33,919 nucleotides of DNA from Planctomycetota bacterium. GTDB lineage: Bacteria > Planctomycetota > SZUA-567 > JAFGNG01. A program made the translations under genes and the position numbers. The DNA is taken from NCBI GenBank assembly GCA_016927125.1, contig JAFGNG010000085.1, positions 1 to 33,919 of the forward strand, written 5' to 3'. The notes under the pieces were generated by a model that was not told where the DNA came from, made no database searches, and worked only from the letters and a program-made list of their open reading frames with translations. Positions 4,034-33,898 of the stretch are shown piece by piece (the first letter of the stretch is position 1; each line of letters opens with the position of its first letter).

Positions 4034-4065
4034 GGGATAGCTAAAAGTCAGCGGAGGGAATTTAC

Positions 4066-5990: not shown

Positions 5991-8109
5991 AACCGGCGAA
6001 ACAAGTTTAACCGATGTGCCTGCCCCGCAGGTCAAGCCTGGGCATGTACTGATTCGAACCCGGAACAGCCTGATCTCTGCTGGCACTGAGAGGATGCTGG
6101 TTGAGTTCGGCAAGGCCAATCTCCTGGACAAGGCACGGCAGCAACCGGAAAAGGTTTTGCAGATGCTGGACAAAATCCGCACCGACGGCCTTTTGCCAAC
6201 CCTTGACGCGGTGAAGAGCAAGCTGGACAGTCCCTTGCCGCTGGGGTACTGCAACGCGGGCGTGGTGATCGGCGTAGGCGAGGGCGTGGAGGGGATCAAG
6301 CCCGGCGACCGGGTTGCCTCAAACGGCCCTCATGCTGAGATAGTTTGTGTGCCTAAAAACCTCTGTGCTAAGATTCCCGGAGATGTTGATGACGAAGCCG
6401 CCGCCTTTACCGTTGCCGGGGCGATTGCGCTCCAGAGCGTACGCCTTGCCAAACCGGAATTGGGCGAAACCATTGTTGTCACTGGCTTAGGATTGATCGG
6501 CCTGCTGGTCGTGCAGCTCTTGCGGGCCAGTGGTTGCCGGGTGTTGGCGATAGATTTTAATGATGCCAGGCTTTCACTGGCAGGGAATTTCGGTGCTGAA
6601 GTCATCAAGTTGACGGAAACAGACAGCCCGATTAACGCGGCTATGCAATTCTCAAGAGGGTTGGGCGTAGACGCGGTGATTATCGCTGCCAGCACCAAGA
6701 GCAGTAAGCCTCTGCAACAGGCTGCCGAGATGTGCCGCGTCCGCGGGCGGGTAGTGTTGGTCGGGGCGGTGGGCATGGAACTGAAACGCGAGCCGCTCTA
6801 CCAGAAAGAAATTACTGTCCAGGTGTCTTGCTCTTACGGCCCCGGCAGGTATGACCCGTCTTATGAAGAGGAAGGCAATGATTACCCCCTTGGCTATGTG
6901 CGCTGGACCGAGCAGAGAAACCTGGAAGCATTCTTGTTAATGCTGGCGCAAAAGAGAGTGGATATAACTCCCCTCATAACCCATCGCTATGCACTTGAGA
7001 AAACTCATGAGGCGTATAAGACTCTGACTGATGATAATTCCGCACTTGGAATCCTGCTGCAGTATCCCGTGGTTGAGTCCGAGGAAGTGTTACCAAGCAA
7101 GATCTCAATGCCAAACGCTTCAGCTATTTCTATGCACAAGGCTACGAAAGAGAATGTGCCGACACTTGGCTGGATTGGCGCAGGCAACTATGCCCAGCGG
7201 ATCCTCTTACCGGCTTTTGACAAGGTACCAAATAGCTTTCTTAAGACAATTGTCTCGCGCGGTGGCGATGATGCCGCGCTGGCCGGTAAAAAATACGGAT
7301 TCCATGAAGCCACCACCGAGGTGGATGATATCTTCAAGGATGAAGAGATTGATGCTGTGGTCATTACTACCCGCCATGACAGCCACGCGGAGCTGGTCTG
7401 CAAGGCGTTACGCGCGGGCAAGCATGTCTTTGTGGAAAAACCCCTGGCAATCACTCCTGAGGGCTTGAATGAAATCAAGGCTGCTTATGAAGACAGCAAG
7501 AAAAAACCCTTGCTCATGGCTGGTTTTAACCGCCGCTTTGCCCCCCAGATCATTAAAATTAAAAAATGCCTTGCTAATGAGAAAGCCCCGAAGGCAATGG
7601 TAGCCACTATGAATGCCGGAAAGTTGCCCAGCAACCATTGGCTCTTGAATCCCGATATTGGGGGAGGGCGGATTCTCGGTGAAGCCTGCCATTATATTGA
7701 TCTTTTAAGATTCCTTGCCGGTACGGAAATGGTTTCAGTAAAGGCGACTCCCCTGGGAGATAACTCCTCCTCACTCTGCCAAAGCGCGACTATTATCCTC
7801 TCATTCGCGGATGGTTCTATTGGCACGCTGCATTACCTGGCTAACGGCCATGGGTTACTACCGAAGGAGCGGCTTGAGGTTTTCTGTGGAGGGAAGGTCT
7901 TCCAGCTTGACAATTATCGACGTCTGCGCGGTTACGGGGTTCCTGGCTTCAAGAAGATGAATCTCTGGCGGCAGGATAAAGGGCAGGGTAATTGCGCGAA
8001 AGAATTCGTGCAAGCGATAGTCGATGGTAAAGAATCCCCGATTCCCTACCAAGAACTGATCGAAGTGGCTGAGGTCACTTTCAAAGCGCTGGAGGAGCTA
8101 CGCCGGTGA
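5965..8109 (+). CDS. Bi-domain oxidoreductase: N-terminal Zn-ADH/MDR-like domain fused to a C-terminal Gfo/Idh/MocA domain
   Basis: N-terminus MKQVFQSLKTGETSLTDVPAP and the MDR Rossmann motif VVTGLGLIGLLVVQLL. A second Rossmann motif GWIGAGNYAQRILLPAF and VFVEKPLA (the EKP motif of Gfo/Idh/MocA). The 5' end overlaps the previous gene by 26 nt. Confidence 0.85.
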   Translation: MKQVFQSLKTGETSLTDVPAPQVKPGHVLIRTRNSLISAGTERMLVEFGKANLLDKARQQPEKVLQMLDKIRTDGLLPTLDAVKSKLDSPLPLGYCNAGVVIGVGEGVEGIKPGDRVASNGPHAEIVCVPKNLCAKIPGDVDDEAAAFTVAGAIALQSVRLAKPELGETIVVTGLGLIGLLVVQLLRASGCRVLAIDFNDARLSLAGNFGAEVIKLTETDSPINAAMQFSRGLGVDAVIIAASTKSSKPLQQAAEMCRVRGRVVLVGAVGMELKREPLYQKEITVQVSCSYGPGRYDPSYEEEGNDYPLGYVRWTEQRNLEAFLLMLAQKRVDITPLITHRYALEKTHEAYKTLTDDNSALGILLQYPVVESEEVLPSKISMPNASAISMHKATKENVPTLGWIGAGNYAQRILLPAFDKVPNSFLKTIVSRGGDDAALAGKKYGFHEATTEVDDIFKDEEIDAVVITTRHDSHAELVCKALRAGKHVFVEKPLAITPEGLNEIKAAYEDSKKKPLLMAGFNRRFAPQIIKIKKCLANEKAPKAMVATMNAGKLPSNHWLLNPDIGGGRILGEACHYIDLLRFLAGTEMVSVKATPLGDNSSSLCQSATIILSFADGSIGTLHYLANGHGLLPKERLEVFCGGKVFQLDNYRRLRGYGVPGFKKMNLWRQDKGQGNCAKEFVQAIVDGKESPIPYQELIEVAEVTFKALEELRR

Positions 8110-9743
8110 GCTGGCTGCGGATGTATCACACCCTCCGCTACTTGAAGCCTGTACAGATATATGGGCGCTTGCTGCGGCACCTACCCCGTAGCGGCACCAA
8201 AGTGCGACCGGTGCCTTCCACCCGCCAACCGGTAGCAAGTTGGACTCAACCTGGAAAATACCATCCCACGATGAGCGGCTCGGACCGCTTTTTTCTTTTG
8301 AATGAAGAACATGAGGTTAAGACCAGCCAGGACTGGTCAAATGTGAAGCGCGACCGGCTTTGGCTTTATAACCTGCATTATTTTGATGATCTGAATGCCG
8401 ACGGCGCTGCGGAACGGTTGAAGTGGCATGAGGTGTATATGACCCGCTGGATTAAGGAAAATCCCACTGGCAACGGGCCGGGGTGGGAGCCATACCCAAT
8501 CTCGCGTAGAATCGTCAACTGGATCAAATGGCAACTGGCGGGAAATTCCTTGAAGAATGAAGCCCTACAGAGCCTCGCCCAACAGGCGCGCTATCTAACC
8601 CGGAGGGTTGAATGGCATTTGCTTGGCAATCATATCCTGGCCAACGCCAAGGCCTTGCTCTTTGCTGGGATCTTCTTTCAAGGGAAGGAAGCGGATGCCT
8701 GGCTGCGGCAAGGGTTAGCCATCCTCCACGATGAAGTCCAGGAGCAGGTACTGGCTGATGGCGGGCATTTCGAGCTCAGCCCGATGTACCATGCCATTGT
8801 CCTCGAAGATCTCTTGGACATTCTGAACCTGCTGCGCAGCTATGGTTATGAAGAGTGTTTTGAATGGGATGAAGATTTGTCAGCCATGCTCAGATGGCTT
8901 GAAACCATGTGCCATCCAGACGGGGAGATCGTTCTCTTTAATGATGCGGCCTTCGGGATGGCTTTACCACCCCAGGCACTTTTTGAATATGCTGAAAGAT
9001 TGGAGGTGGAGAAGGACACTATCTCCCTGCCGGAGATGACCTGCCTGGAAGACAGCGGGTATATTCGGCTGCAGCATGGCGGCGCCAATGCCTTTCTGGA
9101 TCTTGCCCCGCTCGGGCCGGATTACCTCCCCGCGCATGGCCACGCCGATACCTTTACCTTTGAACTTTCAGTGCGTGGACAGAGGATGCTGGTGGACAGC
9201 GGCACCTCCTGTTACGGCCAGAGCGCTGAGCGTTTGCGCCAGAGAGGAACGGCTGCGCATAATACACTTACTATCGACGGAGAGGATTCGTCCGAGGTTT
9301 GGGGCGGTTTCCGCGTAGCCAGGCGGGCACGAGTCGGGGATGTGCTGCTCGATTCAAATATAGATACAAGCAAGATTCAGGCTTCGCATGATGGTTATCT
9401 GCGCCTGAGGGGTGTTGGCCTCCATACCCGCAAATGGGAAATGACCAGGAAATCCCTAAAGATTTGCGATGAAATGGAAGGTACTGGCAGCCATAAGATT
9501 GAGCTGGGCTTTCTGGTCCATCCTGAAATCTCCGTCGCCCAGGCAGGCGCGCACCATTTTGAATTGAAGGATGATAATGGCAAGGTAATCGCCACTATTT
9601 ATACAGATGTCGCAATGGCAGCCGCATTGCAGGAACGCACTTATCATCCGGAGTTTGGGTTGTGGTTAAAGACTACCGGGATTTCGGCAAAGAGCGAGGT
9701 CGAATTGCCCGCAAGCTTCAACTCTGAAATCATCTGGGAATAA
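8106..9743 (+). CDS. Heparinase II/III-like family protein, predicted cytoplasmic (no signal peptide)
   Basis: GTG start overlaps the upstream TGA (GTGA at 8106-8109). N-terminus YHTLRYLKPVQIYGRLL. C-terminal-domain motif LPAHGHADTFTFEL (nt ~9134-9166), typical of the Hepar_II_III family. Confidence 0.85.
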   Translation: MSWLRMYHTLRYLKPVQIYGRLLRHLPRSGTKVRPVPSTRQPVASWTQPGKYHPTMSGSDRFFLLNEEHEVKTSQDWSNVKRDRLWLYNLHYFDDLNADGAAERLKWHEVYMTRWIKENPTGNGPGWEPYPISRRIVNWIKWQLAGNSLKNEALQSLAQQARYLTRRVEWHLLGNHILANAKALLFAGIFFQGKEADAWLRQGLAILHDEVQEQVLADGGHFELSPMYHAIVLEDLLDILNLLRSYGYEECFEWDEDLSAMLRWLETMCHPDGEIVLFNDAAFGMALPPQALFEYAERLEVEKDTISLPEMTCLEDSGYIRLQHGGANAFLDLAPLGPDYLPAHGHADTFTFELSVRGQRMLVDSGTSCYGQSAERLRQRGTAAHNTLTIDGEDSSEVWGGFRVARRARVGDVLLDSNIDTSKIQASHDGYLRLRGVGLHTRKWEMTRKSLKICDEMEGTGSHKIELGFLVHPEISVAQAGAHHFELKDDNGKVIATIYTDVAMAAALQERTYHPEFGLWLKTTGISAKSEVELPASFNSEIIWE

Positions 9744-9767
9744 TTATTAGGAATAAAGGCAGCGAAG

Positions 9768-11024
9768 ATGCGGATACTTTTTTTAACTGAAAATTTCCCT
9801 CCCGAAATGAACGCCGCGGCTACTCGCGTCTATGAACGCGCGGCCTATTGGGTGAAGTGGGGCCATAAGGTTACGGTGGTCACCTGCGCGCCAAATTTCC
9901 CGCTAGGCAAAGTTTTTGACGGTTATAAGAACAAGTGGAAGACAATTGAAGTGATGGATGGTATCCGCGTAGTCCGGGTTAAGACCTACATGGCGCCCAA
10001 TTCCGGTACCTTCCCGCGGATGATGGATTTCCTTTCCTTTATGATCACCGGAACCATTGCCGGGCTCTTTCAGGAGAAACCGGATGTGGTTGCAGCGACC
10101 TCCCCGCAATTCTTTTCCGCCATTGCTGGCTGGCTGGTCGGGGGGCTGCGGCGGGTGCCTTTTGTCTTTGAACTGGGAGATCTCTGGCCCGCTTCCATCA
10201 CCGCGGTCGGGGCGATGGAGGATAATTTCTTCCTCCGCCTGATGGAGAAGCTGGAATTATTCCTCTACCGCCGCTCCGCCTGCGTGGCGGCATTGACCCA
10301 ATCCTTTAAGGATGATCTCATCAGCCGCAACATCCCGGCGGATAAAATCGCGGTAGTGATTAACGGCGTGGATTTGCCGAGGTATTCACCTCGGAAACCG
10401 GATCCCGCGCTGGCGAAGGAATGGGAAGTAGAGGGCTGTTTTATCGTGGGTTATATCGGAACCCACGGTATGGCCCACGCGCTGGAAAAAGTGCTCGACG
10501 CCGCCGCAATTTTGCGCAACGATCCGAAGATTCGTTTCCTCTTTGTCGGCCCGGGTGCAGTGCGGGAGGCTTTAATCGCGGAAGCCAAGGGGCGCAAGTT
10601 GGATAATGTAATCTTCGCACCTCCGCAACCCAAGGAAAGGATGCCTGACTTCTGGGGTTTGTGCAATGTGGCGCTGGTTCACCTGAAGGATACCCCGGTA
10701 TTCGAATCCGTAATCCCTTCGAAGATCTTTGAGGCCATGGGAATGGGATTACCGGTCCTGCTATCGGCTCCTGCCGGAGAGGCTAGCCGGATAGTGGTAC
10801 AAGAGGGTATAGGGATTCATCTCCCGCCCGAGAGCCCGATGGAGCTTGCCCAGGCAATCACCCGATTGAAGAATAACCAGACGGAATACCTGAAATTTGC
10901 CCAAGCCAGCTACGCGGCCGCGCCCCACCATAGCCGGGAACGGCAGGCGCGCGAAATGCTGGCAGTCTTACAGGCGGCTGTGGACGGACGCGGCAGCGAA
11001 GCAGCCAAGGCGGTGGTGACATGA
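9768..11024 (+). CDS. wbuB: Glycosyltransferase family 4, WbuB-like
   Basis: N-terminus MRILFLTENFPPEMNAAATRVYERAAYWVKWGHKVTVVTCAPNFPLGKVFDGYKNKW closely matches the characteristic WbuB-type N-terminus. C-terminal GT1 motif SKIFEAMGMGLPVL. Confidence 0.8.
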   Translation: MRILFLTENFPPEMNAAATRVYERAAYWVKWGHKVTVVTCAPNFPLGKVFDGYKNKWKTIEVMDGIRVVRVKTYMAPNSGTFPRMMDFLSFMITGTIAGLFQEKPDVVAATSPQFFSAIAGWLVGGLRRVPFVFELGDLWPASITAVGAMEDNFFLRLMEKLELFLYRRSACVAALTQSFKDDLISRNIPADKIAVVINGVDLPRYSPRKPDPALAKEWEVEGCFIVGYIGTHGMAHALEKVLDAAAILRNDPKIRFLFVGPGAVREALIAEAKGRKLDNVIFAPPQPKERMPDFWGLCNVALVHLKDTPVFESVIPSKIFEAMGMGLPVLLSAPAGEASRIVVQEGIGIHLPPESPMELAQAITRLKNNQTEYLKFAQASYAAAPHHSRERQAREMLAVLQAAVDGRGSEAAKAVVT

Positions 11025-11998
11025 AACAGATCATGGTAACCGGCGCGGATGGCTTTGTCGGCACCGCCCTGTGCAGAAAACTTGTCGCGGATGGCTATGC
11101 AGTCCGGGGCGCGGTCTGGGAACTTGCCTTAGTTACAGATCACAATAAGATTTCCGGCGTGGATTATATTGAAGTTGGCGGAATTGACGGAGAGACGGAT
11201 TGGCGGGATGCAGTTGAAGGGATTGAAACTGTGATTCACCTTGCCGCCCGCGTACATGTAATGCATGAAACCACCGGCGACCCTCTGGCAGAATTCCGAA
11301 AAGTAAATTGTGATGGCAGCGCTAACCTGGCGGCACAATGCGCGGCGATGGATGTCATCCGGCTGGTCTATGTCAGCACGGTAAAGGTGAGCGGCGAGAA
11401 AACAACCGACGAGCCCTTGCATGAAGAAGTAATGGCAAAACCCCAAGAGCCCTATGCCATTTCAAAATGGGAAGCAGAGGAGATTCTTTGTAAAATTTCG
11501 CAGGAAACCGGGCTGGAACTGGTGATTGTCCGCCCGCCACTGATCTATGGCCCGGGCGTAAAAGCGAATTTTCTCAGGATGATCCGGTGGATTGATAAAG
11601 GCTTGCCCCTGCCGCTGGGCGGAATCCATAATAAGCGCAGCCTGATAGGATTGAGCAATTTTGCAGACTTCCTTGCCTTGTGCGCAATGAAACCGGAAGC
11701 AAAAGGAGAAGTCTTTTTTGTCAGCGATGATGATGATGTTTCGACCTCGGAATTATTGCGCCGCGTAGCTGTTGCCCTTGGCAAGCCGTGCAAGATCTTC
11801 TGGTTTCCAAGTATGTTACTCCGCGCTGCTGCCTTGCTGTTGGGGCAGAAAGCGGCGGCGGACCGCCTGCTGGGGTCACTTGAACTGGATATCTCCAAGG
11901 CGAAGACAAAACTCGGATGGCAACCGCCATCCAGCATGGCTGAAGAATTACAGGCCACTGCCGACTGGTATCTTGCTTCCAAAGGAACCGCAACATGA
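11021..11998 (+). CDS. NAD-dependent epimerase/dehydratase (extended SDR), WbpK-like position
   Basis: Rossmann motif VTGADGFVG. Catalytic YxxxK (YAISK). ATGA overlap with the upstream gene at 11021-11024. Confidence 0.85.
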   Translation: MKQIMVTGADGFVGTALCRKLVADGYAVRGAVWELALVTDHNKISGVDYIEVGGIDGETDWRDAVEGIETVIHLAARVHVMHETTGDPLAEFRKVNCDGSANLAAQCAAMDVIRLVYVSTVKVSGEKTTDEPLHEEVMAKPQEPYAISKWEAEEILCKISQETGLELVIVRPPLIYGPGVKANFLRMIRWIDKGLPLPLGGIHNKRSLIGLSNFADFLALCAMKPEAKGEVFFVSDDDDVSTSELLRRVAVALGKPCKIFWFPSMLLRAAALLLGQKAAADRLLGSLELDISKAKTKLGWQPPSSMAEELQATADWYLASKGTAT

Positions 11999-13053
11999 TT
12001 CAGCTTCACTTAGGCATTATCCTATTTTTAGTGATTATTGCCTCCACAATTTTGACCGGATTGCTCCGGCGATATGCTTTAAAAAAGAAACTGATTGATC
12101 ATCCCAATGCGCGCAGCTCCCATGAAGTTCCAACCCCGCGCGGGGGAGGGGCGGCGATAGTAATCACCTGCTTGGCAGGACTCTTTCTTTTACCATATTT
12201 ATACCAGCCCACCGATGAGGTGCTTTATGCCTTATTGGTCGGAGGCCTGCTGGTCGGGGGGATTGGCTTTTGGGACGACCATGGGCATATCCGGGCGAGA
12301 TGGCGGGTGCTGGTGCAGGCGATTGCGGCAGCAGGGTCATTCGCAATAGTTTTTGGCGTGCCTGAATTACAGAATGGGCCTTCTGCCCTGTTCTGGGGCT
12401 GCTTGATATTTATCGCCGCGATCCTTGTGATTGTTTACTTGATCAATATCTATAATTTCATGGATGGGATCGATGGGATTGCTGCGGCAGAAGCGATTAC
12501 CGTGGGGGTTGCCACCGGGATCTTGTTTTATTTTTATAACAATGAATTTGGAGTAATTACAGCCATCGGTTTAGTGGCTTCAGCAGCATCATTGGGTTTC
12601 TTGGTATGGAACTGGCCTCCGGCGAAGATCTTCATGGGAGACTGTGGCAGTGGTTTTCTTGGTTACATCTTTGGTTTCATGATTGCGATCTGTGGGATGT
12701 ATCTATTGTACACAAAATCTGAAAGCGAACTTATCATGTACCTGACCTTGCCATTCCTGCTGGGAGTGTTTATTGTGGATTCGACCGTAACCCTACTGCG
12801 TCGGATCCTGCGATGGGAGAAATTCTGGCTGCCGCACCGGATGCATGCCTACCAGCATTCTTCGAGAAGATGGGGGCACAAGAAGGTGACCGTGGCGGTA
12901 GCATCAATAAATCTTTTCTTCCTCGCGCCCTGCGCCTGGGCGGCATACCACTGGGCGCCTGCCGGGATTTTTATAATGCCCGCTGCATGGATGATCCTGG
13001 CAATTGCCGCCTTGGCCTTGTCCGCGGGCAAGCCGGAAGCAGCGAAAGGGTAA
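11995..13053 (+). CDS. MraY/WecA-family polyprenyl-phosphate N-acetylhexosamine-1-phosphate transferase (initiating transferase, WbpL-like)
   Basis: About 10 TM helices. Motifs IGFWDDHGH and YNFMDGIDGIAA (nt ~12454-12483) are typical of the Glycos_transf_4 family. ATGA overlap at 11995-11998. Confidence 0.85.
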   Translation: MIQLHLGIILFLVIIASTILTGLLRRYALKKKLIDHPNARSSHEVPTPRGGGAAIVITCLAGLFLLPYLYQPTDEVLYALLVGGLLVGGIGFWDDHGHIRARWRVLVQAIAAAGSFAIVFGVPELQNGPSALFWGCLIFIAAILVIVYLINIYNFMDGIDGIAAAEAITVGVATGILFYFYNNEFGVITAIGLVASAASLGFLVWNWPPAKIFMGDCGSGFLGYIFGFMIAICGMYLLYTKSESELIMYLTLPFLLGVFIVDSTVTLLRRILRWEKFWLPHRMHAYQHSSRRWGHKKVTVAVASINLFFLAPCAWAAYHWAPAGIFIMPAAWMILAIAALALSAGKPEAAKG

Positions 13054-13160
13054 GAGTTAATAAAAATCTTGCGCAATACCAGCCTATACTTATACTCTGT
13101 TGAAATCGCGACAGACACTATAATAAGTAACCTTTGATCCATCATTGAGGCCCAAGAGCA

Positions 13161-15071
13161 ATGAAATCAACCTGGCATAAAAGCCTGAACTTCCGGCGTC
13201 CGGCCCTATTTGTGTCGGATATGGTGATAATCCTCTGCGCCTATTACCTGGCATACTGGCTGCGTCTGGATTTGATCCGCGGCGACCAAGCGGCCTATGA
13301 CGCTTACCTGGATACCTTCTGGTACACGATTCCATGGCTTTTGGTGATCAGGTTCTTATGTAGTATCCTGATGCGCCAATATACTTGGGCTTTCCGCCTC
13401 GCCAGCCTGCCGGAGGCTGCAAATCTCGTCAAAGCCGCAATTATCGGCAGTGTGCTCTTCTTCCTGCGCTGGCATCTCTCCGCTGACCTGCTGCAGAAAC
13501 CACCGCTCTCGGTTTATGTAATTGAATTCGCTCTCAGCCTGATGGGGATGGCCTTTGTCCGATTCTTCCCGAGATATTTTTATCAGCAGTATTTTCACAG
13601 CGGACGCGGCTTCATGGCTGATGGAGAAAGCCGCCTGCGCACGCTAATCTTCGGAGCCGGCAGCACCGGCGATTTAATCCTGCGAGATTTGCAGCGTACA
13701 AAGATTTACCCTTACCGGGTAATCGGTCTCATCGATGATAATCCTGCCAAGCGTAATATCTCAATCCACGGCTGCCGGGTGCTGGGATCATCCGATGATC
13801 TGCCGAGGCTGATTCGTAAACATAAAATTGAAAAGATCCTCATTGCCGCACCCGAGATGACCGGCTCACGCTTGCGGCGGATCCTGGACATCTGTTCCAA
13901 CCACCATGTCCAATATAAGATTGTTCCCAACTACGCGGAACTGGTCAGTAAGGGCGATACCGCGCCCATTACCCTGAAGGATCTTCAACCGGAGGATCTC
14001 CTCGACCGCCTGCCGGTGGAATTCGATCATACCCGGATGGCTGCACTATTTCATGACCGTACTCTCCTCGTAACCGGCGCGGCCGGCTCCATCGGCTCGG
14101 AGATCTGCCGGCAGGTTGTCGGGCAGGGAATCAAAAAGCTGGTGGCTGTAGATATTAATGAAAACAACCTCTACTTCCTCAAATTGGAAATTAATGAGCT
14201 TGCCCCCGGCCTTGATCTCAGCATAGAGGTAGCGAGTGTGCGGGATCGCCAGAAAATACAGGAGCTATTCGCCCGGCACCAACCGCATATTGTCTACCAT
14301 GCCGCCGCCCATAAGCATGTTCCGTTGATTGAAAATTGCCCGGAAGAGGCTCTCAAAAATAATGTTCTGGGAACCTTGTATGTCGCGGAAGCAGCGGATC
14401 AGAATGATGTGGAAAGGTTTGTGCTAATCTCCACTGACAAGGCAGTAGGCCCGAGTAGTGTGATGGGGGCAAGCAAACGCTTGGCCGAGGATGTAGTCCG
14501 GGATATGGATCTGCGCAGCAAGACCCGCTTTATGGTGGTCCGCTTCGGCAATGTGCTGGGCTCCAGCGGCAGCCTGGTGCCAATCCTTCAGCGGCAGATC
14601 TCCAAGGGCGGGCCAGTAACCATTACCCATCCGAAGATAACCCGCTTCTTCATGACTATCCAGGAAGCGGTTGGCCTGGTGATTGTCGCTTCCGCCCAGG
14701 ACGAGGGCAACCTCTGCGTACTTGATATGGGGGAACAACTCAATGTCGACCGCCTGGCGCGGCAGATGATCACCCTCTCCGGTTTTATCCCGGATCAAGA
14801 CATCCCAATTATTTACACCGGCTTAAGGCCGGGCGAGAAGATGTTTGAGGAGCTCTTCACCAAGAACGAACAGCGTCGCTCCTCCAGCCATGCCAGGATC
14901 TTCCTGGCTGACGGCGACGCTCCCCGGACAACAATTCCGGAAATGCTTAAGGCACTGGAGGTTACGATAGAGAGCGGGAGAAGAGCGGCGGTTTTCGATT
15001 TCCTCCATCAGCATGTCAAAGATTACCAACCGGTAGAGAACTCCCCTGAGAAGCCTAAATCTGATGATTAA
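13161..15071 (+). CDS. Membrane-anchored nucleotide-sugar 4,6-dehydratase/epimerase (CapD/WbpM/PglF family)
   Basis: Four N-terminal TM helices are followed by two Rossmann-type regions. Motifs LLVTGAAGSIGSEI and ISTDKAVGPSSVMGASKRLAE. 636 aa, as for WbpM/PglF-type proteins. Confidence 0.9.
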   Translation: MKSTWHKSLNFRRPALFVSDMVIILCAYYLAYWLRLDLIRGDQAAYDAYLDTFWYTIPWLLVIRFLCSILMRQYTWAFRLASLPEAANLVKAAIIGSVLFFLRWHLSADLLQKPPLSVYVIEFALSLMGMAFVRFFPRYFYQQYFHSGRGFMADGESRLRTLIFGAGSTGDLILRDLQRTKIYPYRVIGLIDDNPAKRNISIHGCRVLGSSDDLPRLIRKHKIEKILIAAPEMTGSRLRRILDICSNHHVQYKIVPNYAELVSKGDTAPITLKDLQPEDLLDRLPVEFDHTRMAALFHDRTLLVTGAAGSIGSEICRQVVGQGIKKLVAVDINENNLYFLKLEINELAPGLDLSIEVASVRDRQKIQELFARHQPHIVYHAAAHKHVPLIENCPEEALKNNVLGTLYVAEAADQNDVERFVLISTDKAVGPSSVMGASKRLAEDVVRDMDLRSKTRFMVVRFGNVLGSSGSLVPILQRQISKGGPVTITHPKITRFFMTIQEAVGLVIVASAQDEGNLCVLDMGEQLNVDRLARQMITLSGFIPDQDIPIIYTGLRPGEKMFEELFTKNEQRRSSSHARIFLADGDAPRTTIPEMLKALEVTIESGRRAAVFDFLHQHVKDYQPVENSPEKPKSDD

Positions 15072-25750: not shown

Positions 25751-27979
25751 GTGAATAATACTATACGGAGTTTTGCATTGTCAGAATATAAACGAACCCT
25801 ACCCTGGACATTATGGATAGCCCTCCTCAGCCTGTTTGCTGCGGTAGTAATCTTTTCGGTAGTGGCTTATACCACCAATCCGGTTTTCCTGGCGGGAATC
25901 CCAGTCCCTGCGCTGCTTCTCTGGGGCCTGGCAAGGGGAAAGCGTTGGGCGTATCTTCTTACGATCGTCGTGTCGATTGGCAGTATGATCTTTGCATTAT
26001 ATTATGAATCTTCCACCGCTGCGATGTTCAGGTTTTTTACAATTTTGCCGGTCTTAATCCCGGTCTTACTTTGCACCTGGTTTTTCTTCCCCAAAACAGG
26101 ATTAGCCACCGAAACTTATCCTAATCCCCCGAATCCGGCCAGGAAGAAGCAGTTTATTTGTTGCCTGCTTGCCGTCGCCCTTTTGATTGGAGCGATGCAA
26201 ACCCTGGAGCCCACTATTACACTCCGTGACAAATACAATCTGTCCGTGAATCCTGTGAGTGAGGGGGTGCCGCCCGAGATCGTCCTGGCAACCACCTTCC
26301 TGGGTGGATTTCGCAGCATCTTTATTGATGTCCTCTGGTTGCGGGCCATGGCGATGAAGCAGGAAGGCAATTATTTTGAAATGGTCCAGCTGTATGACTG
26401 GATCACCAATATGCAACCCCATTACGCGCAGGTTTGGAGTTTTATTGCTTGGGACCTGGCGTACAATGTCTCGGTTGATTATCAAGACCTTGAAGATCGC
26501 TGGTTCTGGATCTATCGCGGCATTCGTTACCTTCGCGACAAGGGTATTCCGGCAAACCGTAATGTATCTTCCCTTTATCTCGACCTGGCCTGGATTTTTG
26601 AACACAAACTTGGCGCAACCATGGACTATGCCCACCAGATCTATCGGGTTAAGTGGTGGCGGATGATGCAGGAGGCGCTTAAAGGTTCTGGGGAACGCGA
26701 ACAGCTCGAAGCGCTGGTCGACATACCTGATGATCTTGGAGGGGTACAAAAGTATCTTAATGAGATCATGAATTACCCTGATAATACTGACACCTTGCGA
26801 CAGGACAAAAATGTTGATCAAGCCGCCACCTTCCTGACTGATAACGGAATTGATCTCTTCGCTGAATACACCGGCTTATCAGATTTCCCGGAAGAGTATC
26901 CGGAGAATGTCCAGCAATACCTCAAAACCAAGGAAGCAATCGAAGCCTTTAAGACCATTCGCCTTTACCGGATAAAAAACTGGTTGGCTAATAACTTAAA
27001 GGAAAATACTGCGCAACAGTTGATTGAGATTAAAGAGAACTTGGCGCGATTGAAGCTGGAGCCGGAACTGATGCTTAACGTTACCAAGAACTTTGGGCCG
27101 TTGGATTGGCGCGGGTGCGACGCTCACAGTATGTACTGGGTATCCAAGGGACGGGAAATTCGGGTTTACCAGTTATCCCAGAAGCAGTTGCGGGAGAGCC
27201 TTGATTACAAGATGATGGACATCAGGTTCGAACGGCGCCTGTATAACTGTATGCAGGAACTTCTCCGTCGGGGCCGCTTCATGATAACCTCTGATGGCTA
27301 CACCTACACGATTCCGGACTACCGCTTCATCGAACCTACGCTGCGATACTTCCGGAAGGTTCTGAAAGAGGTCCGGTCAAGTCGCTCGCAAGCGGGCCGG
27401 GAGCTTAATGGCAAAGGGATACAATCCTGCTACATGTACCTCCTGGAAAGATGTATCTTTATGTATTACTTCAACGGTCAGATTAACATTGCGGATCGCT
27501 ACCTTGAGTACATGCGCGAGGAAGCACCGTTAAACCCGAACTTCCAGGTTACCGCGGAGCAGTTTGTCAGGAATAATATTGCGCAATGGATTAGCGATAT
27601 GACGCCTAATCGTTATCACACCATGGTCGAGGGTATGATCCGATGGAGTTTTATTGATCTTGCCCAGGGTGATTACGCCAGTGCGGCAAACCGCGAGAAA
27701 GAGATCCACTTGCTTGAAGAATACGCCCAAAAGCGCTGGCCTTACGATCCCGAAAATAAGGAAGACCAGTTTAAATACCTTGCCCCCCTCGAAGACCTAT
27801 CCTCGGACATGTTGGTGCGGATCCTAGACGGTAAGGAACCAGGCTTTAGCCCGGCAATGCGTCAGCGATTGGAGAAGGCCTTAGGCCCAGAAAAGATCAA
27901 AAACGCCAGGAAGAGAGTCGAGCAAAAAGCCGGTTTCATCAACAATTTAAAGGATAAACCTGTAGCCACAGGGCAGTAA
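25751..27979 (+). CDS. Hypothetical 742-aa membrane-anchored protein with a large aromatic-rich helical domain
   Basis: GTG start with a weak RBS. About 5-6 N-terminal TM helices, then ~550 aa of soluble sequence rich in W/Y (WITNMQPHYAQVWSFIAWDLAYNVSVDY, RWFWIYRGIRYLRD, IYRVKWWRMMQEAL). I recognise no family. Confidence 0.7.
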   Translation: MNNTIRSFALSEYKRTLPWTLWIALLSLFAAVVIFSVVAYTTNPVFLAGIPVPALLLWGLARGKRWAYLLTIVVSIGSMIFALYYESSTAAMFRFFTILPVLIPVLLCTWFFFPKTGLATETYPNPPNPARKKQFICCLLAVALLIGAMQTLEPTITLRDKYNLSVNPVSEGVPPEIVLATTFLGGFRSIFIDVLWLRAMAMKQEGNYFEMVQLYDWITNMQPHYAQVWSFIAWDLAYNVSVDYQDLEDRWFWIYRGIRYLRDKGIPANRNVSSLYLDLAWIFEHKLGATMDYAHQIYRVKWWRMMQEALKGSGEREQLEALVDIPDDLGGVQKYLNEIMNYPDNTDTLRQDKNVDQAATFLTDNGIDLFAEYTGLSDFPEEYPENVQQYLKTKEAIEAFKTIRLYRIKNWLANNLKENTAQQLIEIKENLARLKLEPELMLNVTKNFGPLDWRGCDAHSMYWVSKGREIRVYQLSQKQLRESLDYKMMDIRFERRLYNCMQELLRRGRFMITSDGYTYTIPDYRFIEPTLRYFRKVLKEVRSSRSQAGRELNGKGIQSCYMYLLERCIFMYYFNGQINIADRYLEYMREEAPLNPNFQVTAEQFVRNNIAQWISDMTPNRYHTMVEGMIRWSFIDLAQGDYASAANREKEIHLLEEYAQKRWPYDPENKEDQFKYLAPLEDLSSDMLVRILDGKEPGFSPAMRQRLEKALGPEKIKNARKRVEQKAGFINNLKDKPVATGQ

Positions 27980-28077: not shown

Positions 28078-28980
28078 TTGAATCGTCGTCTGCTTATCGC
28101 CCTCGCATTATGTATCATCCTGCCAGGGTGTGCGTTACCGTGGGGTGAAAGCGAAAGCGAGCCTCCACCGGTTCTTGACACTATTCCAGAAGCGGAATTA
28201 ATCCCCTCCCAGAGAGCCTCGGAACTCGTAAAGCTGGCGGTCGCGCCTGCCTCCACGCTTAATGGCCTGGAGATCCAGGGAAAACTAAAGGCTGAAGATG
28301 CAAGCGAAAATGATTTCAACCTCCGTTGTGTAATCCAGCTTTTGATGGAGAGGCCGGCAAAGTTACGCCTCGCTGCCACCAAGGGTTTGAATACCGAAAT
28401 CATGGATCTCTCCATGATTAATGATTCGCTGGATGTCTGGCTGCCAACTAAGAATATCCTCTATCGCGGCAGAGTTCGCGACCTTGCTACCAGCGGTATG
28501 GATTTCCATCCCAACGAGATTGTTGAACAACTACTGTTTCCAGTAGAAGAATTCAATACAATGGCATGGGGCATAGTCTCTGACACGGATGATTTCATCA
28601 TCGTAATGGAAGTAAGTTCAAATCGTTATAAAAACCGCCTCACCATTGACAACGAAACCGGTGTACTTATTAGGCGCGAGATAATTGGCCCGGATGGGCT
28701 GGTCTACCTTGAATCGACCTTTTCCAAGCACAAGGAAATCAAAAAACATCCAGAACTCAACCTCTTTCCCCATCAAGTGCAACTGTGGTTCCCCCAGGAG
28801 AAGCGCAAATTGCTCTTTTACCGGCTGAGCATCATGCCCAATCCGGACACCTCCGAAAAAGATTACCGCTTTGTCGCTCCCGAGGATGCCGTCATTAAGT
28901 CCCTTAACGTACAGGAACAGGTTGATATTGCCTCTGCTCTCCAGGAGGTTGAGGAAACTACGGAGGAAGGCGGGCAATGA
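28078..28980 (+). CDS. Lipoprotein, LolB/DUF4292-like (tentative)
   Basis: TTG start 7 nt after AAGGTG. Signal peptide with lipobox L-P-G-C (Cys18, nt 28129-28131). The mature part resembles LolA/LolB-fold proteins (LRCVIQLLMERPAKLRLAATKGLNTEIMDLSMINDSLDVWLPTKNILYRG). ATGA overlap with the next gene. Confidence 0.7.
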   Translation: MNRRLLIALALCIILPGCALPWGESESEPPPVLDTIPEAELIPSQRASELVKLAVAPASTLNGLEIQGKLKAEDASENDFNLRCVIQLLMERPAKLRLAATKGLNTEIMDLSMINDSLDVWLPTKNILYRGRVRDLATSGMDFHPNEIVEQLLFPVEEFNTMAWGIVSDTDDFIIVMEVSSNRYKNRLTIDNETGVLIRREIIGPDGLVYLESTFSKHKEIKKHPELNLFPHQVQLWFPQEKRKLLFYRLSIMPNPDTSEKDYRFVAPEDAVIKSLNVQEQVDIASALQEVEETTEEGGQ

Positions 28981-31900
28981 TTCATAAGATTCTGGCAAAA
29001 TGTGGCCATATCGCCTGCACCCAGTACCGGGCGGTTCTCTTTGCGGCTATTATTCTCACCATTCTTGCGCTGGTGCCACCCATCTTCTTTGTGGAAAGCA
29101 AGTTTTCCGCTTCGGTAAGTAAACTTCTGCCGACCGACAATGAATCCGCCAAAGCTTTTAACCGTGCCCTAAACGATTTCGGGACCGCTGATGAGGTCTT
29201 CGTCCTCTTCCGGCTGGCAGATGCCGAAGATGTAGAGGGGGTTGGCCAATATGTTGTTGAACTTGCTGATAAGTTGCGGGATTTGCCGGATTTCCAGGAC
29301 GCTTATTGCCGGACCATCCGCCCCGAGGAAAAAGGCTTTCTCGAGGATGAATTAATGGCACGCGGACTGCTTTATCTTCCCCCTGAAGGAATTGCTGAGG
29401 TTAAGGAAAAGCTTACCCAGCCGAATATCGCCCGTGCTACCAAGAAAACCTTCACCAAGATAACCAGCCCCGGACTGGATAGGATAGTTGAAGGCAAGGA
29501 ATCCCAGACATTTTTACTGCAGCTCGGCGTCGGGGAAATCTTCCAGAAGCATCTGCGGGCGGCATATAGCAATCTTGGCGAAAACGGTGATAACGGCTTA
29601 TTGGTATCTTATGATAACGGGCCGGATGATAAACAATCCGGCGGTGCAGTTATCCTGCTTGCCGCCCAACCGCAAGCGCCGGCCCAGCGCCTGGAATACG
29701 CCAATCGAATTATGGATATTGTCCGCGAAGAGACCTTTAAAATATTCGGTGAACAAGAAGTAAGTCCTGAGTGGCGAAGCCCGGTGGTGTGGTGGAATCC
29801 CTCAACCTGGAACCTGAGGCGGGAGCCAATCCAGGGTAAAATGCCCCCCGCCTTGGCCAAAAAGGTTCAGGTCAGCTTCGGAGGCGGCTATGAAGTCTCC
29901 ATGCGCTATACCCAGAATCTTTCCTCCAGCCTGAAATCGACCTTTATTACTAGTTTAATCGGGGTCCTGCTACTCTTCGGGTATTGCTACCGGCGGTATG
30001 GCGTAGCTCTCTACGTCGGGGTACCCCTGGTGATGGTGGTCTGCTGGACCATGGGCGCCGGATGGCTATTATTTGGCAAGCTGAACGTGATTTCCTGTGC
30101 CTTTGCTGCAGTTCTGGTAGGCTTGGGCGTCGATTACGCTGTCCATATCTATAACCGTTATATTGAGGAGCGCGGCGCCGGCCGGGCGGTCGAGGAGAGT
30201 TTTATTACCTCTCTCAAACAAACCGGCAGTGGGGTTGTCGTCGGGATGTTGACGACCGCGATGTCATTTATGGCGCTAATGGTAACCCGTTTCAAGGGGT
30301 TGTCGCAATTTGGCACCCTCGCCGCCCTGGGGTTGGCCCTGGCCTTACCGGCAATGATCTTTGTCCTGCCCGCGTTGGTAGTCTGGCGCTCCAAGCGCGG
30401 GGATGGCGAACATCGGCGGGCGCTCAGGTCGACAACCTTTTATCTGCCCCAACTCTCCACCTTCCTTTCCAGGTTCCCATATCTGGTCGCAATCATAGGT
30501 GTGGGGCTGGCGGTTGTTTCGGGAATCTATATCGCTTATGATCCAAGTTCCGTCCGTTTTGATGAACGCCTCGCCAGCCTTCGTCCCAGTGGGGACCCGG
30601 TCTTTAAACTTGGACAGGAAATCTCGGAACGCTTCTCCCGCAAAAGCCCAGCAAGGATTATGGCTATTATTCCGGGGAATACCGAAGCCGAGGCCATGGA
30701 TAACGCGTCCGAGGTTTTAGAAAAGCTGAAAGTTATTAAAGCCGAGGGGATCTTGAAGGATTTTGAAATCCTTAACCAGTTTATCCCATCGCCTCAGGAG
30801 CAGGAGAAGCGGCTTAAGGAAATTGCCGCCATCGACTTCGGTTTGGCGGCAAGTGAACTAAAACAACAATTGGACAAATACGGTCTTGCGGAATCAGTGT
30901 TTAAAGACGTTTTTCAGTTTTTTGGCAATCATAAGAATCTGAATGAGAATTTTCCCGTGATACTACCCACCAGCTTCAAGCATACCCCAGCTTGGCGTCT
31001 GATGCAACGGCTGGTGGGCAGGCATAAGGTCCGCTATCGGGTTGATACGAGCGAGACACCCAATGCCTGGGAGCAGCTTGCCGCTGGGAATAAATTGATT
31101 ATCTCGGAATTGCCCACTACCCGCGAGGGCGGGTATTTCTTTACCGACGGGATTCCAATAGACGCGGCCTCTATTGATTATCTCGAATCAGTTGGAATTC
31201 CTGAAATAAATCTCACAATTGAGAACAAAGAAGGCCTAGGTCAGAATGATATCAAGCGGGAAAAAGTCACCCTTGCCGAAGTGCGCAAGCTACTCGCCAA
31301 TAATCCGAAGCGGGTATATTTTGCGGGCACTGTCATGAAGAATGGCGAGCCACTTCTCAGTACCGGCATTGAAATTACTACAGACCTCCTGGTATTTCTT
31401 GATAAATCCAATTGTCGCGATGTTGGGGTTTTCGGCGAAGGTTGGAGCACGTTGGCTTATCTTTATCCCCCCGCGGATGAAACCAGTGAAATTTCAGACC
31501 AATGGATCTCATCCCTGAGAGATAATCTTGGGGAAGACAACCAGAAGGTTCTGCTTACCAGCACCATGCTGGTTGCCCATGACCTCGCCACCGTGGTTAA
31601 AGAGGATTTCTTCCATATTTCCATCGCCGTCTGCATCATCGCCGCCCTGGTGCTTGCAATCTGCTATCGGAATGTTACCCGGGTAGTCTTCTCACTTTTG
31701 CCGATTGGACTGGCCTTGTTTTATCTCTTCGGCATTATGGGCATTGCCAATATTTCCTTTAATTTTATCAATGTTTTGGTAGTTCCGGTAATTATCGGCC
31801 TCGGGGTGGATAATGGCATCCATCTGGTGCACCGTTTCCAGGAATCAAATCATGACATTCGCCCGATGGTTACAGATACCGGCAGGGCGATCGTGATTAC

Positions 31901-32084
31901 CAACCTCACCAGCATGATCGGCTTTGGCTCCCTCTGGATGGGCAGTTATGACGGCCTTACCAGCATGGGAATGCTGACCGTTCTGGGATTGAGCATGTCA
32001 ATGTTTGCTTCCCTGATTGTTCTACCAGCCCTGCTGTATGTATTCCGCGGGTTTTTTAAGAATAATTCCGCCTTTAAAACGTGA
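28977..32084 (+). CDS. RND-superfamily exporter of the MMPL/HpnN type (COG1033-like)
   Basis: 1035 aa with a duplicated architecture: TM, large periplasmic domain, then a 5-TM bundle, twice. Each TM bundle carries a paired motif: LGVDYAVHIYNRYIEE and LGVDNGIHLVHRFQES. Confidence 0.85.
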   Translation: MIHKILAKCGHIACTQYRAVLFAAIILTILALVPPIFFVESKFSASVSKLLPTDNESAKAFNRALNDFGTADEVFVLFRLADAEDVEGVGQYVVELADKLRDLPDFQDAYCRTIRPEEKGFLEDELMARGLLYLPPEGIAEVKEKLTQPNIARATKKTFTKITSPGLDRIVEGKESQTFLLQLGVGEIFQKHLRAAYSNLGENGDNGLLVSYDNGPDDKQSGGAVILLAAQPQAPAQRLEYANRIMDIVREETFKIFGEQEVSPEWRSPVVWWNPSTWNLRREPIQGKMPPALAKKVQVSFGGGYEVSMRYTQNLSSSLKSTFITSLIGVLLLFGYCYRRYGVALYVGVPLVMVVCWTMGAGWLLFGKLNVISCAFAAVLVGLGVDYAVHIYNRYIEERGAGRAVEESFITSLKQTGSGVVVGMLTTAMSFMALMVTRFKGLSQFGTLAALGLALALPAMIFVLPALVVWRSKRGDGEHRRALRSTTFYLPQLSTFLSRFPYLVAIIGVGLAVVSGIYIAYDPSSVRFDERLASLRPSGDPVFKLGQEISERFSRKSPARIMAIIPGNTEAEAMDNASEVLEKLKVIKAEGILKDFEILNQFIPSPQEQEKRLKEIAAIDFGLAASELKQQLDKYGLAESVFKDVFQFFGNHKNLNENFPVILPTSFKHTPAWRLMQRLVGRHKVRYRVDTSETPNAWEQLAAGNKLIISELPTTREGGYFFTDGIPIDAASIDYLESVGIPEINLTIENKEGLGQNDIKREKVTLAEVRKLLANNPKRVYFAGTVMKNGEPLLSTGIEITTDLLVFLDKSNCRDVGVFGEGWSTLAYLYPPADETSEISDQWISSLRDNLGEDNQKVLLTSTMLVAHDLATVVKEDFFHISIAVCIIAALVLAICYRNVTRVVFSLLPIGLALFYLFGIMGIANISFNFINVLVVPVIIGLGVDNGIHLVHRFQESNHDIRPMVTDTGRAIVITNLTSMIGFGSLWMGSYDGLTSMGMLTVLGLSMSMFASLIVLPALLYVFRGFFKNNSAFKT

Positions 32085-32245
32085 TTCCAGCAGGAACGGC
32101 ATATATTTCCGACATAACAATAATGATGTGAACTCATGGACATTGCCCATGATATTTATATAATAATTTATACAACATTGTGACAAAGAATTAAGTTTAA
32201 ACCTGTAAATGACGAATAAATTAAAAGGTTATTTGGAGTATTAAT

Positions 32246-33139
32246 ATGAAGATATGTCAAATATTAGCTTTCTCATTAATGCTGGCAATCTTTTGTTCCA
32301 GTGTGATTGCTGGTGAAGTATTTTGTGCCTTGGACGAGTTACCGGATAAAAGCCCCCCGACCGTCTTATCTGATGAAGAAATTGATAGTTATCTGACTGC
32401 CACCTTTAAGCGCCATGAAAACCTGAAATGGTTTTCTGCATTTATGACCCAAACAAAAAGCGGCGGAATTTTTAAGCGCCCGGTTGTTCAGAGTGGCGAG
32501 CTCAAGGTTGAACTCCCGGACCACATGCTCCTGGATATGTCTGAAGATGGCGTGATGATCGTCGCCGATGGAAAATACTTCTGGATTTATGACACTGATC
32601 TTGATGAAGTCGAACGCTATAAAGCCGAGCGTTGGAATACCAAGGGCCAGGCGAAAGCAGAAGCCAAAAACCTTGATATGGCTGCATTGTTACTGGGCGC
32701 TGATGTTAAAACCGTGGAAGAGATGCGGGAATTCTACAATATTACCGCCACCTTCAATAATGGGATTGTCAATTATGTCTTGTTTCCCCTGAAGGGCGAG
32801 CCGGCGGAGAGATACAGCAAGATAGAAATCTCCCTTGCCGATGATGCGCTCCTGCCCCTGCGCACGGTAATGACGGCCAAGCCCAAAGCAGGGGACACCC
32901 AGCCTCCGGCGGTAGTAGAATACCTGCTCACCGCTTTTGGTAGCAATCTTTCAGGCTTGCCCCCATTTGAGAAAACCGCCTTTATCTTCCCCTTGACCGA
33001 GGACATCGAGGTTCACGATATGGATCCTGATGGCGGCGAAACCATTGTGCCATATGAAACTGTTAAAAAAGAACTAGCTGAGCAGGCAGCCGCTTGCGAA
33101 GAAAATGAACCGGACAACAGTGTACAGGAGAGGGAATGA
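32246..33139 (+). CDS. Periplasmic LolA-like (outer-membrane lipoprotein carrier fold) protein
   Basis: GGAG lies 8 nt upstream of the ATG. Type I signal peptide MKICQILAFSLMLAIFCSSVIAGEV. LolA-like pattern FSAFMTQTKSGGIFKRPVVQSGELKVELPDHMLLDM...IVADGKYFWIYDTDLDEV. Acidic C-terminal tail. Confidence 0.65.
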   Translation: MKICQILAFSLMLAIFCSSVIAGEVFCALDELPDKSPPTVLSDEEIDSYLTATFKRHENLKWFSAFMTQTKSGGIFKRPVVQSGELKVELPDHMLLDMSEDGVMIVADGKYFWIYDTDLDEVERYKAERWNTKGQAKAEAKNLDMAALLLGADVKTVEEMREFYNITATFNNGIVNYVLFPLKGEPAERYSKIEISLADDALLPLRTVMTAKPKAGDTQPPAVVEYLLTAFGSNLSGLPPFEKTAFIFPLTEDIEVHDMDPDGGETIVPYETVKKELAEQAAACEENEPDNSVQERE

Positions 33140-33627
33140 ACGAGAGAGAAACCGCAATCCTGGCTGGTGAGTATCAAATTATTAATGCCAGCGGTAGCTT
33201 GAATGGACGGAGCTCGGAATCACAGGAATTGAAAAGCGTCCTGAACCGGGCAGGGGACTCTTTGATCCAAGGCAACTATATAATCAATCTTTCCGATGTG
33301 GATTACATTGATTCCAGCACCATGGGTATGTTTGTCCGCTTCCTCTACCAGTTGCAGGCTGCTGAGAAAAAACTTGTTCTGCTATCGCCTCCCGAATCCA
33401 TAAGCGAGGTCTTGCGGATGACTGGCCTGCAGGAATTAATGCCGATCGCTGATACTGAGGAGCAGGCTTGCGAATTGCTCGGGGTCGAGCGCCGCCGTCT
33501 GGCTGGCAAGTCAGAGGATGTGAATTATGCCCAACTCGAGAAAGAACTGGAGGAGCTGATTATCTGCTCCGGAGAATCTGGTAGCCAGAAAGAATCGCCT
33601 CAATTGCAGAAGATTTTGGGGAGGTAG
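33136..33627 (+). CDS. STAS-domain protein (anti-sigma-factor-antagonist/MlaB-like fold) with an acidic C-terminal extension
   Basis: ATGA overlap with the LolA-like gene (33136-33139). STAS core YIINLSDVDYIDSSTMGMFVRFLYQLQAAEKKLVLLSPPESISEVLRMTGL. No signal peptide. Confidence 0.8.
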   Translation: MNERETAILAGEYQIINASGSLNGRSSESQELKSVLNRAGDSLIQGNYIINLSDVDYIDSSTMGMFVRFLYQLQAAEKKLVLLSPPESISEVLRMTGLQELMPIADTEEQACELLGVERRRLAGKSEDVNYAQLEKELEELIICSGESGSQKESPQLQKILGR

Positions 33628-33789: not shown

Positions 33790-33865
33790 TCCCCTGTAGC
33801 TCAGTTGGTAGAGCAATGGACTGTTAATCCATGTGTCCCAAGTTCGAGTCTTGGTGGGGGAGCCA
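33790..33865 (+). tRNA. tRNA-Asn (anticodon GUU), CCA encoded
   Basis: Folded by hand. Acceptor stem TCCCCTG/TGGGGGA (two G-U pairs). D arm GCTC-AGTTGGTA-GAGC. Anticodon arm ATGGA-CTGTTAA-TCCAT (GTT at positions 34-36). Variable loop GTGTC. T arm CCAAG-TTCGAGT-CTTGG. Discriminator G plus CCA. Very similar to E. coli tRNA-Asn. Confidence 0.95.
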
Positions 33866-33873: not shown

Positions 33874-33898
33874 ACGCCGTCCAATGGGCGGCGTTTTT
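33874..33898 (+). terminator. Rho-independent terminator downstream of tRNA-Asn
   Basis: Stem ACGCCG (33874-33879) pairs with CGGCGT (33889-33894). It is extendable by CC/GG pairs in the loop and is followed by TTTTT. Confidence 0.7.

Follow-up and report, generated by a model that had tools for sequence, protein, structure and literature searches.

A predicted LolA/LolB-like carrier pair genetically linked to an RND exporter in a class of Planctomycetota

A contig of 33,919 nucleotides (33.9 kb) from a Planctomycetota bacterium (GenBank assembly GCA_016927125.1, contig JAFGNG010000085.1), analyzed in its entirety and hereafter called the window, carries four consecutive genes, A to D, for a LolB-like lipoprotein, an exporter that belongs to the resistance-nodulation-division (RND) superfamily, a LolA-fold carrier and a STAS protein. 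We propose, with confidence no better than even, that A and C form the LolA/LolB-like relay of this lineage and that this relay is wired to the RND lipid exporter B, which would feed it with a cargo other than hopanoids. Four lines of evidence support this reading: the LolA/LolB folds of A and C, the uniqueness of both genes, the linkage of C to lgt in part of the class, and the linkage of both genes to the pump. A preliminary description made from the sequence alone had seen here an export module with no biosynthetic genes attached, possibly a general inner-membrane-to-outer-membrane shuttle for lipids or lipoproteins, and this suggestion is supported, as far as gene content and predicted folds go, by its fit with everything found.

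Predicted proteins of the locus

The features of the locus are as follows.

28078..28980, + strand: gene A, predicted 300 aa lipoprotein, LolB-like (DUF4292-type) member of the LolA/LolB superfamily (open reading frame (ORF) call, AlphaFold2 (AF2) model, Foldseek, Pfam)
Start of gene A, + strand: TTG, with a ribosome-binding site AAAGGTGA 8 nt upstream
28120..28131, + strand: lipobox L-P-G-C, gene A residues 15-18, with lipidation predicted at Cys18
28977..32084, + strand: gene B, 1035 aa predicted MMPL/HAE3-type RND exporter; its start overlaps the gene A stop (ATGA)
30132..30134, + strand: Asp386 codon, in motif GLGVDY of gene B transmembrane segment 4 (TM4), aligned with HpnN D344 (5khn)
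32137..32164, + strand: promoter-like site TGGACA-16-TATAAT in the B-C gap, 11/12 consensus matches, by pattern match only
32246..33139, + strand: gene C, 297 aa predicted secreted LolA-fold carrier (Pfam LolA, AF2 model, Foldseek)
33136..33627, + strand: gene D, 163 aa predicted STAS protein, cytoplasmic and of anti-sigma-antagonist type; the gene start overlaps the gene C stop (ATGA)
33313..33315, + strand: Ser60 codon of gene D, invariant in a six-sequence alignment

All four ORFs were recovered where the preliminary description had placed them, on the + strand like every confidently called gene of the window, and the two ATGA overlaps that it had reported could be read directly from the sequence at 28977-28980 (A/B) and 33136-33139 (C/D). 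The gap between B and C (32084-32246) comprises 161 bp of AT-rich sequence, in which the promoter-like site overlaps a small hairpin at 32134-32152; this suggests that C and D may be transcribed separately from A and B.

Since a word-indexed homologue search returned a single relative for C and none for A, profiles from related loci were used instead. The comparison covered 20 loci of 14-20 kb sampled throughout the class, in which genes were located by six-frame hidden Markov model searches, and the alignments of A and C built from these loci were used for structure prediction. The N-terminus of A, MNRRLLIALALCIILPGC, reads as a signal peptide followed by an L-P-G-C lipobox, in line with the lipobox lipoprotein first described; the lipobox cysteine is conserved in at least 90% of 104 relatives, and the G-C pair is conserved in the 20-locus alignment. 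For the window protein, the match to Pfam DUF4292 (PF14125) stays below threshold (15.8 bits, cut-off 23), and six orthologues in related genomes exceed that cut-off. A profile search with A retrieved 2,307 representatives among 1.84 billion proteins, and the 104 relatives sampled from them matched DUF4292 (44, at E-values up to 0.01), PF17131 (22), LolA (6) and DUF3261 (1); the same Pfam scan yielded no DUF3261 match for the window protein itself. For TP0789/TP0790, the namesake of PF17131, no functional data were present in the literature found. The AF2 model of A (pLDDT 82.8) reached its best Foldseek TM-score with LolB of P. gingivalis (9tpm; TMq 0.58, TMt 0.72, root-mean-square deviation 4.1 Å), matched E. 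coli LolB with TMt 0.66-0.69, and obtained its best E-values with the DUF1329 protein 4z48 and the 'lipoprotein-sorting' protein 3bk5. A lies far under the NCBIfam equivalog cut-offs for Lol proteins. Given its lipobox and its LolA/LolB-type fold in the model, A is thus a predicted LolB-like lipoprotein, and the initial LolB/DUF4292 assignment is upheld by the structure search and by the orthologues above the DUF4292 cut-off.

Protein C matched Pfam LolA (PF03548) above its cut-off (27.7 versus 23.6 bits), with only residues 59-129 aligned, and scored 31.6 bits against the LolA equivalog TIGR00547, for which the cut-off is 112. With its AF2 model (pLDDT 82.1), the 28 top Foldseek matches were all genuine LolA structures (E-values down to 6e-12, TMt 0.70-0.76), which agrees with the LolA fold originally assigned to it; LprG (3mh8, 3mha) was also among the fold matches. 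The sequence contains one N-terminal, signal-like hydrophobic segment and has neither a lipobox nor a conserved cysteine. In line with the signal-peptide LolA-fold protein of the preliminary description, C is thus predicted to be a secreted, soluble protein with a LolA fold. The profiles of A and C are themselves related (hhalign probability 93.7%).

Both genes look like the only ones of their kind in this lineage. C is the only PF03548 match in its genome, most PF03548 matches in 61 related genomes are C orthologues, and a C profile places the family in 58 of these relatives, mostly as a single copy; similarly, all DUF4292 matches across the 61 genomes are A orthologues. These 'only one' statements carry lower confidence for the present metagenome-assembled genome, given that it is 73% complete and that only 7-8 candidates were scored per genome in phylum-wide searches; they hold in five one-contig genomes with an estimated completeness of ~90-91%. 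This suggests that A and C may represent the lineage's sole LolB and LolA.

Gene B encodes an intact-looking exporter. Its product matches Pfam MMPL (PF03176) at 2e-34 over two stretches, and hydropathy indicates 12 transmembrane segments with periplasmic loops at residues ~39-318 and ~515-869, in line with the MMPL/RND exporter proposed at the outset. The nearest NCBIfam families are HpnN, HAE3 and BstA, and B remains far below the cut-offs of all of them: 254.9 bits against HpnN TIGR03480 (cut-off 751.85), 140.6 bits against HpnN NF052374 (cut-off 1100), 198 bits against HAE3, and 167.2 bits against the BstA sterol transporter NF045600 (cut-off 1400). The best match in the Protein Data Bank (PDB) is HpnN (5khn, E-value 1e-23), and a residue-by-residue alignment to this structure pairs B Asp386, in the TM4 motif GLGVDY, with HpnN D344, and B Thr978/Ser979 with HpnN T818/T819; a second such motif, GLGVDN, lies in the C-terminal half. 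We take D344 and T818/T819 to be the proton-relay residues of the HpnN structure paper. From these features, B looks like a proton-driven exporter of the HpnN/MmpL-like type. B was present in 60 of the 61 related genomes, and a pattern scan of the contig collection retrieved only a Treponema locus, at 21% identity.

The cytoplasmic STAS protein announced by the preliminary description is also recovered: D matches Pfam STAS at 1e-12 and contains no hydrophobic segment. It belongs to the anti-sigma-antagonist superfamily, with 59.4 against TIGR00377 (anti-sigma-factor antagonist, cut-off 53.45), and not to MlaB, for which it scores 22.9 against a cut-off of 90 (NF033618). With this score, and with no ABC (ATP-binding cassette) partner or ATPase in the module, we rejected an MlaB-like role. 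Ser60 is invariant in D and five relatives within the motif Y-[IV]-[DN]-S-x-x-x-G (DSSTMG in the window), and by motif only we assume that it occupies the position of the phospho-serine S58 of SpoIIAA. The C-terminal tail of the family is conserved and acidic, following the pattern D-V-[DN]-Y ... E-[IL]-E ... L-x-[KR]-[IL]-[LV], usually then G. We regard D, which is confined to this family, as a putative lineage-specific regulator, an accessory rather than a core part, which probably modulates the system by phosphorylation-dependent partner switching and would be dispensable in most relatives.

Conservation and gene neighborhoods

Because the window is a whole contig, genes lying beyond it could be checked only in the loci of relatives. 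Across the 20 loci, A was found directly upstream of B in 19, C directly downstream of B in 15, and D in 4. Of the four-gene module initially described, the A-B pair, usually with C, is therefore the conserved core, and the four-gene set with the STAS protein is not. The full A-B-C-D order was also found on an unrelated metagenome contig, behind an AraC regulator and glycan-degradation genes; in other loci the neighbors are 2-oxoacid dehydrogenase genes, or a YebC-type gene on one side and a SIS-domain gene on the other. Overall, the flanks of the module in relatives consist of unrelated housekeeping genes.

In three genera (g7, g8 and g15; 8 genomes, five of them single-contig), C lies away from the pump; here the gene immediately upstream of it, on the same strand, is lgt, which gives the order ScpB-Lgt-C-SIS. 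The lgt gene, the first gene of lipoprotein maturation, was present in 60 of the 61 genomes, and its linkage to C strengthens the suggestion of a general lipid or lipoprotein shuttle. In the rest of the phylum, A-like genes mostly lie apart from C-like ones, some lineages keep an A-B or a B-C pair, and in several planctomycete lineages with A-like and C-like genes no B-like gene was found at E-values up to 1e-8.

In the mechanism that we propose, C and A would form the general LolA/LolB-type relay by which this lineage moves acyl-anchored cargo. C would shield acyl chains in the periplasm, and lipoprotein A would receive the cargo and insert it into the outer membrane, where A itself would presumably reside. 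Lipoproteins would enter this relay from a LolF/LolD-like ABC pair whose genes lie elsewhere, and exporter B would have been placed between the A and C genes in this class because it uses the same relay for a lipid cargo, presumably with some contact between B and C. Taken together, these three points give the simplest account of the observations.

Several observations weigh against this proposal. Physical coupling of B and C is not obligatory: C is detached in three genera, and in a further genus (g6) A, B and C are fully unlinked. The loci with a detached C encode a B that is longer by ~130 aa, and a gene for a small membrane protein is inserted between A and B. For instance, in genus g8, B reaches 1160-1170 aa through a ~120-aa insertion in the first periplasmic loop, just before TM2, and the intervening gene encodes a conserved 135-144-aa membrane protein with no Pfam match (L027:8963-9397, L028:8202-8609, L029:11591-12004). 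These two additions hint at a compensation for the detached C, and B may work without C in these genera. The 11/12 promoter-like site in the AT-rich B-C gap of the window likewise weakens an obligatory coupling, and the conserved gene order could reflect envelope co-regulation instead of a shared pathway. Finally, since C lies far under the LolA equivalog cut-off and carries extra segments, its behavior may differ from that of E. coli LolA.

A detachable C, the unlinked genes of g6 and the promoter-like site before C keep two alternatives alive, namely a lipid-only export arm, which is weighed below with the evidence on cargo, and simple co-location. In the latter, A and C would be the lineage's LolB and LolA and B an independent lipid or solvent exporter, all sharing an operon for regulation without any cargo being handed over. 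The three features just named favor this explanation, as do the A-like and C-like genes that occur without B in other lineages. However, the A-B adjacency survives class-level divergence, with translational coupling in places, and in an independent lineage a LolA-like domain shares one polypeptide with an MMPL pump: the Thalassolituus protein TOL_3187 combines MMPL and LolA-like domains (PMC6304351). We thus consider mere co-location unlikely.

A further alternative concerns the way in which lipoproteins would enter the relay. B itself might extract lipoproteins from the inner membrane, as a proton-driven alternative or supplement to LolCDE, in which case A-B-C would amount to a complete RND-based Lol pathway; in favor of this, the genome's sole LolB-like and LolA-like genes lie on either side of B, and all three genes are conserved as a set. 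Against this, a LolC/E-like permease of the FtsX/MacB type was found in all 61 genomes, at scores under the curated LolCE cut-off, and an ABC ATPase adjoins this permease in both genomes checked (the present one, with the LolF-like permease at G000:C173:797-2068, and G007). A-like and C-like genes also persist without B elsewhere in the phylum, and we know of no RND pump that moves lipoproteins, so that this alternative appears highly improbable. The boldest reading is that of one relay with two motors, in which the periplasmic and outer-membrane legs of lipoprotein trafficking (the sole LolA and a DUF4292-type LolB) would be hard-wired to the proton-driven pump, with an ABC motor for lipoproteins and an RND motor for bulk membrane lipid or even lipoproteins. 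We regard such an arrangement as unlikely; if true, it would cross the envelope by a hybrid route that differs from the Lol, Lpt and Mla systems described.

How lipoproteins are delivered to the outer membrane beyond beta- and gamma-Proteobacteria is an acknowledged open question (PMC9963962, PMC11784454), and the present locus names concrete LolA and LolB candidates in a planctomycete class, tied genetically to an RND pump or to lgt. If the pump loads the same relay, this would be a new way of moving lipids to the outer membrane and would provide a function for a pairing, that of MMPL pumps and LolA-like proteins, which is widespread but unstudied. Otherwise, the assignment of the lineage's sole LolA and LolB candidates would still be a useful annotation.

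Two further gene arrangements involve relatives of B and C. A SIS_2-domain gene of ~195-215 aa, which may be GmhA-like, follows C in both arrangements described above (L051:7420-9905; L059/L060:13855-15292; L036, L037), as A-B-C-SIS in a sister family with large genomes and as lgt-C-SIS in genus g8, so that the C-SIS pair is older than either linkage. In three genomes of a family of another class (f38), a B-like exporter gene and a second C-like gene lie consistently 18-21 kb apart in the same chromosome region (G091:C1, G177:C1, G264:C2), with the A-like gene far from this region.

PF17131 LolA_like proteins were detected sporadically, in 9 of the 61 genomes, within separate accessory cassettes. 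One of these lies on another contig of the present genome (G000 contig C63:31907-37101) and combines a 935-aa MMPL pump, a 289-aa PF17131 LolA_like protein (188 bits) and a 491-aa protein that carries a signal peptide and resembles an outer-membrane barrel; given that PF17131 proteins occur in just 9 of 61 relatives, this cassette is considered accessory. In two genera of the window's family (G004:C249:1535-4568 and G003:C92:8208-11236), a tandem pair of genes for LolC/E-like permeases precedes a PF17131 LolA_like gene, an ABC-driven carrier cassette distinct from the A-B-C module.

Cargo of the exporter

Profile searches of the window proteins detected no ketosynthase, acyl carrier protein (ACP) or hopanoid genes, in agreement with the absence of such genes noted in the preliminary description. 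No hopanoid, pigment or ketosynthase/ACP cluster travels with the module in the loci examined, and no ketosynthase or ACP gene adjoins it in the window or in loci L047 and L059-L061. A FabF-like ketosynthase gene lies three genes upstream in L059/L060, separated from the module by unrelated genes, and is not conserved. Two outcomes had been named in advance as fatal to the shuttle suggestion, namely a failure of the LolA/LolB fold assignments in profile or structure searches and the discovery, in syntenic loci, of a standard hopanoid or aryl-polyene cluster containing the exporter. The fold assignments hold, no such cluster was found, and the suggestion stands unrefuted.

This genome and its whole family lack squalene-hopene cyclase, as do 36 of the order's 37 genomes, among them five one-contig genomes with an estimated completeness of ~90-91%; a sister family whose genomes are larger has the enzyme. 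This absence excludes hopanoids as a conserved cargo in this order, and hopanoid cargo was rejected accordingly. B also fails to qualify as an HpnN-type protein on both HpnN score cut-offs and on hopanoid-gene context. We likewise rejected membership in an aryl-polyene or flexirubin export arm, as ketosynthase and ACP genes do not co-travel with the module. The cargo of B in this order would thus be neither a hopanoid nor the product of an adjacent polyketide cluster.

The same observations bear on the possibility that A, B and C form a dedicated, lipid-only export arm of the ApeLMN, flexirubin or HpnN type. In this case, the three proteins would move a single non-protein lipid whose biosynthesis genes lie elsewhere, and lipoproteins would take another route. 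In its favor, aryl-polyene and flexirubin genes are known to be accompanied by trios of a LolB-like lipoprotein, an RND protein and a LolA-like protein (PMC11885536), A-B-C keep their order throughout the class, and the closest likeness of B is to HpnN, the hopanoid transporter. However, biosynthetic genes travel with the module in no locus examined, the key hopanoid enzyme is missing from nearly the entire order, and the module, near-universal and single-copy, is part of the core and not accessory. The relocation of C beside lgt also speaks against a lipid-only role, and no other LolA or DUF4292 protein that could serve a LolF/D-like transporter was found in these genomes. Overall, we judge a dedicated lipid arm unlikely.

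Comparison with known systems

We file A-B-C as a variant of the ApeLMN/flexirubin-type trio, in which a pair of Lol-like carriers is combined with an RND exporter. ApeL, ApeM and ApeN follow the same three-part logic, with a lipoprotein that is LolB-like, an exporter of the RND superfamily and a secreted carrier that is LolA-like. The flexirubin locus of Flavobacterium johnsoniae, which holds LolA2/LolB2, shares the lipoprotein and the carrier with A-B-C, and the RND likeness is claimed for aryl-polyene clusters only; for both ApeL/M/N and LolA2/LolB2, a lipid route to the outer membrane has been proposed, not tested (PMC11885536). The differences are substantial. These systems sit beside ketosynthase, ACP or pigment genes and A-B-C has no such companions; the ApeLMN lipoprotein is of the DUF3261 type and A is DUF4292-like, with DUF3261 in one of the 104 A relatives; their LolA-like member is an extra paralogue and C is the genome's only LolA. 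In addition, B is HAE3/HpnN-like, and A-B-C is near-universal, single-copy and core in the class, with a carrier that alternates between the pump and lgt.

HpnN (PDB 5KHN, 6WU0) is the closest solved structure to B and shares its architecture of 12 transmembrane segments and two loops. Unlike B, it is ~150 aa shorter, the second periplasmic loop being larger in B, and to our knowledge it has not been described with LolA/LolB-like partners.

The locus also resembles the Lol pathway (LolCDE or LolDF, LolA and LolB) through the LolA fold and signal peptide of C, the LolB-like lipoprotein A, the linkage of C to lgt in three genera, and the LolC/E-like permease in every genome searched. Unlike in the Lol systems described, which have no RND pump between the carriers, A and C here flank a pump. 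According to reviews, LolB is unrecognized outside beta- and gamma-Proteobacteria (PMC9963962, PMC11784454), and LolB-like proteins in Bacteroidota were recognized only in 2025-2026 (PMC11885536, PMC13103446); by TM-score, A is closest to one of these, P. gingivalis LolB. We found no mention of PVC (Planctomycetota-Verrucomicrobiota-Chlamydiota) bacteria or of RND pumps in the Bacteroidota LolB papers searched.

A more distant parallel is offered by LprG-Rv1410c (P55) of Mycobacterium tuberculosis, in which a lipid-binding lipoprotein and a proton-driven transporter encoded in one operon move lipids outward. This system is like A-B in pairing a lipoprotein with a proton-driven transporter, and LprG matches the fold of C. 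However, its transporter belongs to the major facilitator superfamily and not to the RND superfamily, a soluble LolA-like partner is absent, and it operates in the mycobacterial envelope.

Flanking regions of the window

Upstream of A, a 742-aa unannotated membrane protein (window 25751-27979) ends an SPFH/ABC-2 block and adjoins A in another genus of the family as well (G002, L063:648-2738), with 44% identity over 656 aa. This arrangement is kept within the family only, other members of the order having different neighbors there, and we rejected a link between the block and the module. Downstream of D, the gene array and the contig end with two features.

33790..33865, + strand: tRNA-Asn (GTT), by ARAGORN
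33874-33894: terminator-like hairpin 3′ of tRNA-Asn, by terminator scan

At the opposite end, window positions 1-15071 hold a polysaccharide/O-antigen-type cluster on the same strand as the A-D module, with genes for a Wzy_C ligase, GT1/GT4 glycosyltransferases, an asparagine synthase, a PMT_2-like protein, a GFO/ADH fusion, a heparinase II/III-like protein, an epimerase, a WecA-type GT4 and a Polysacc_synt_2 protein.

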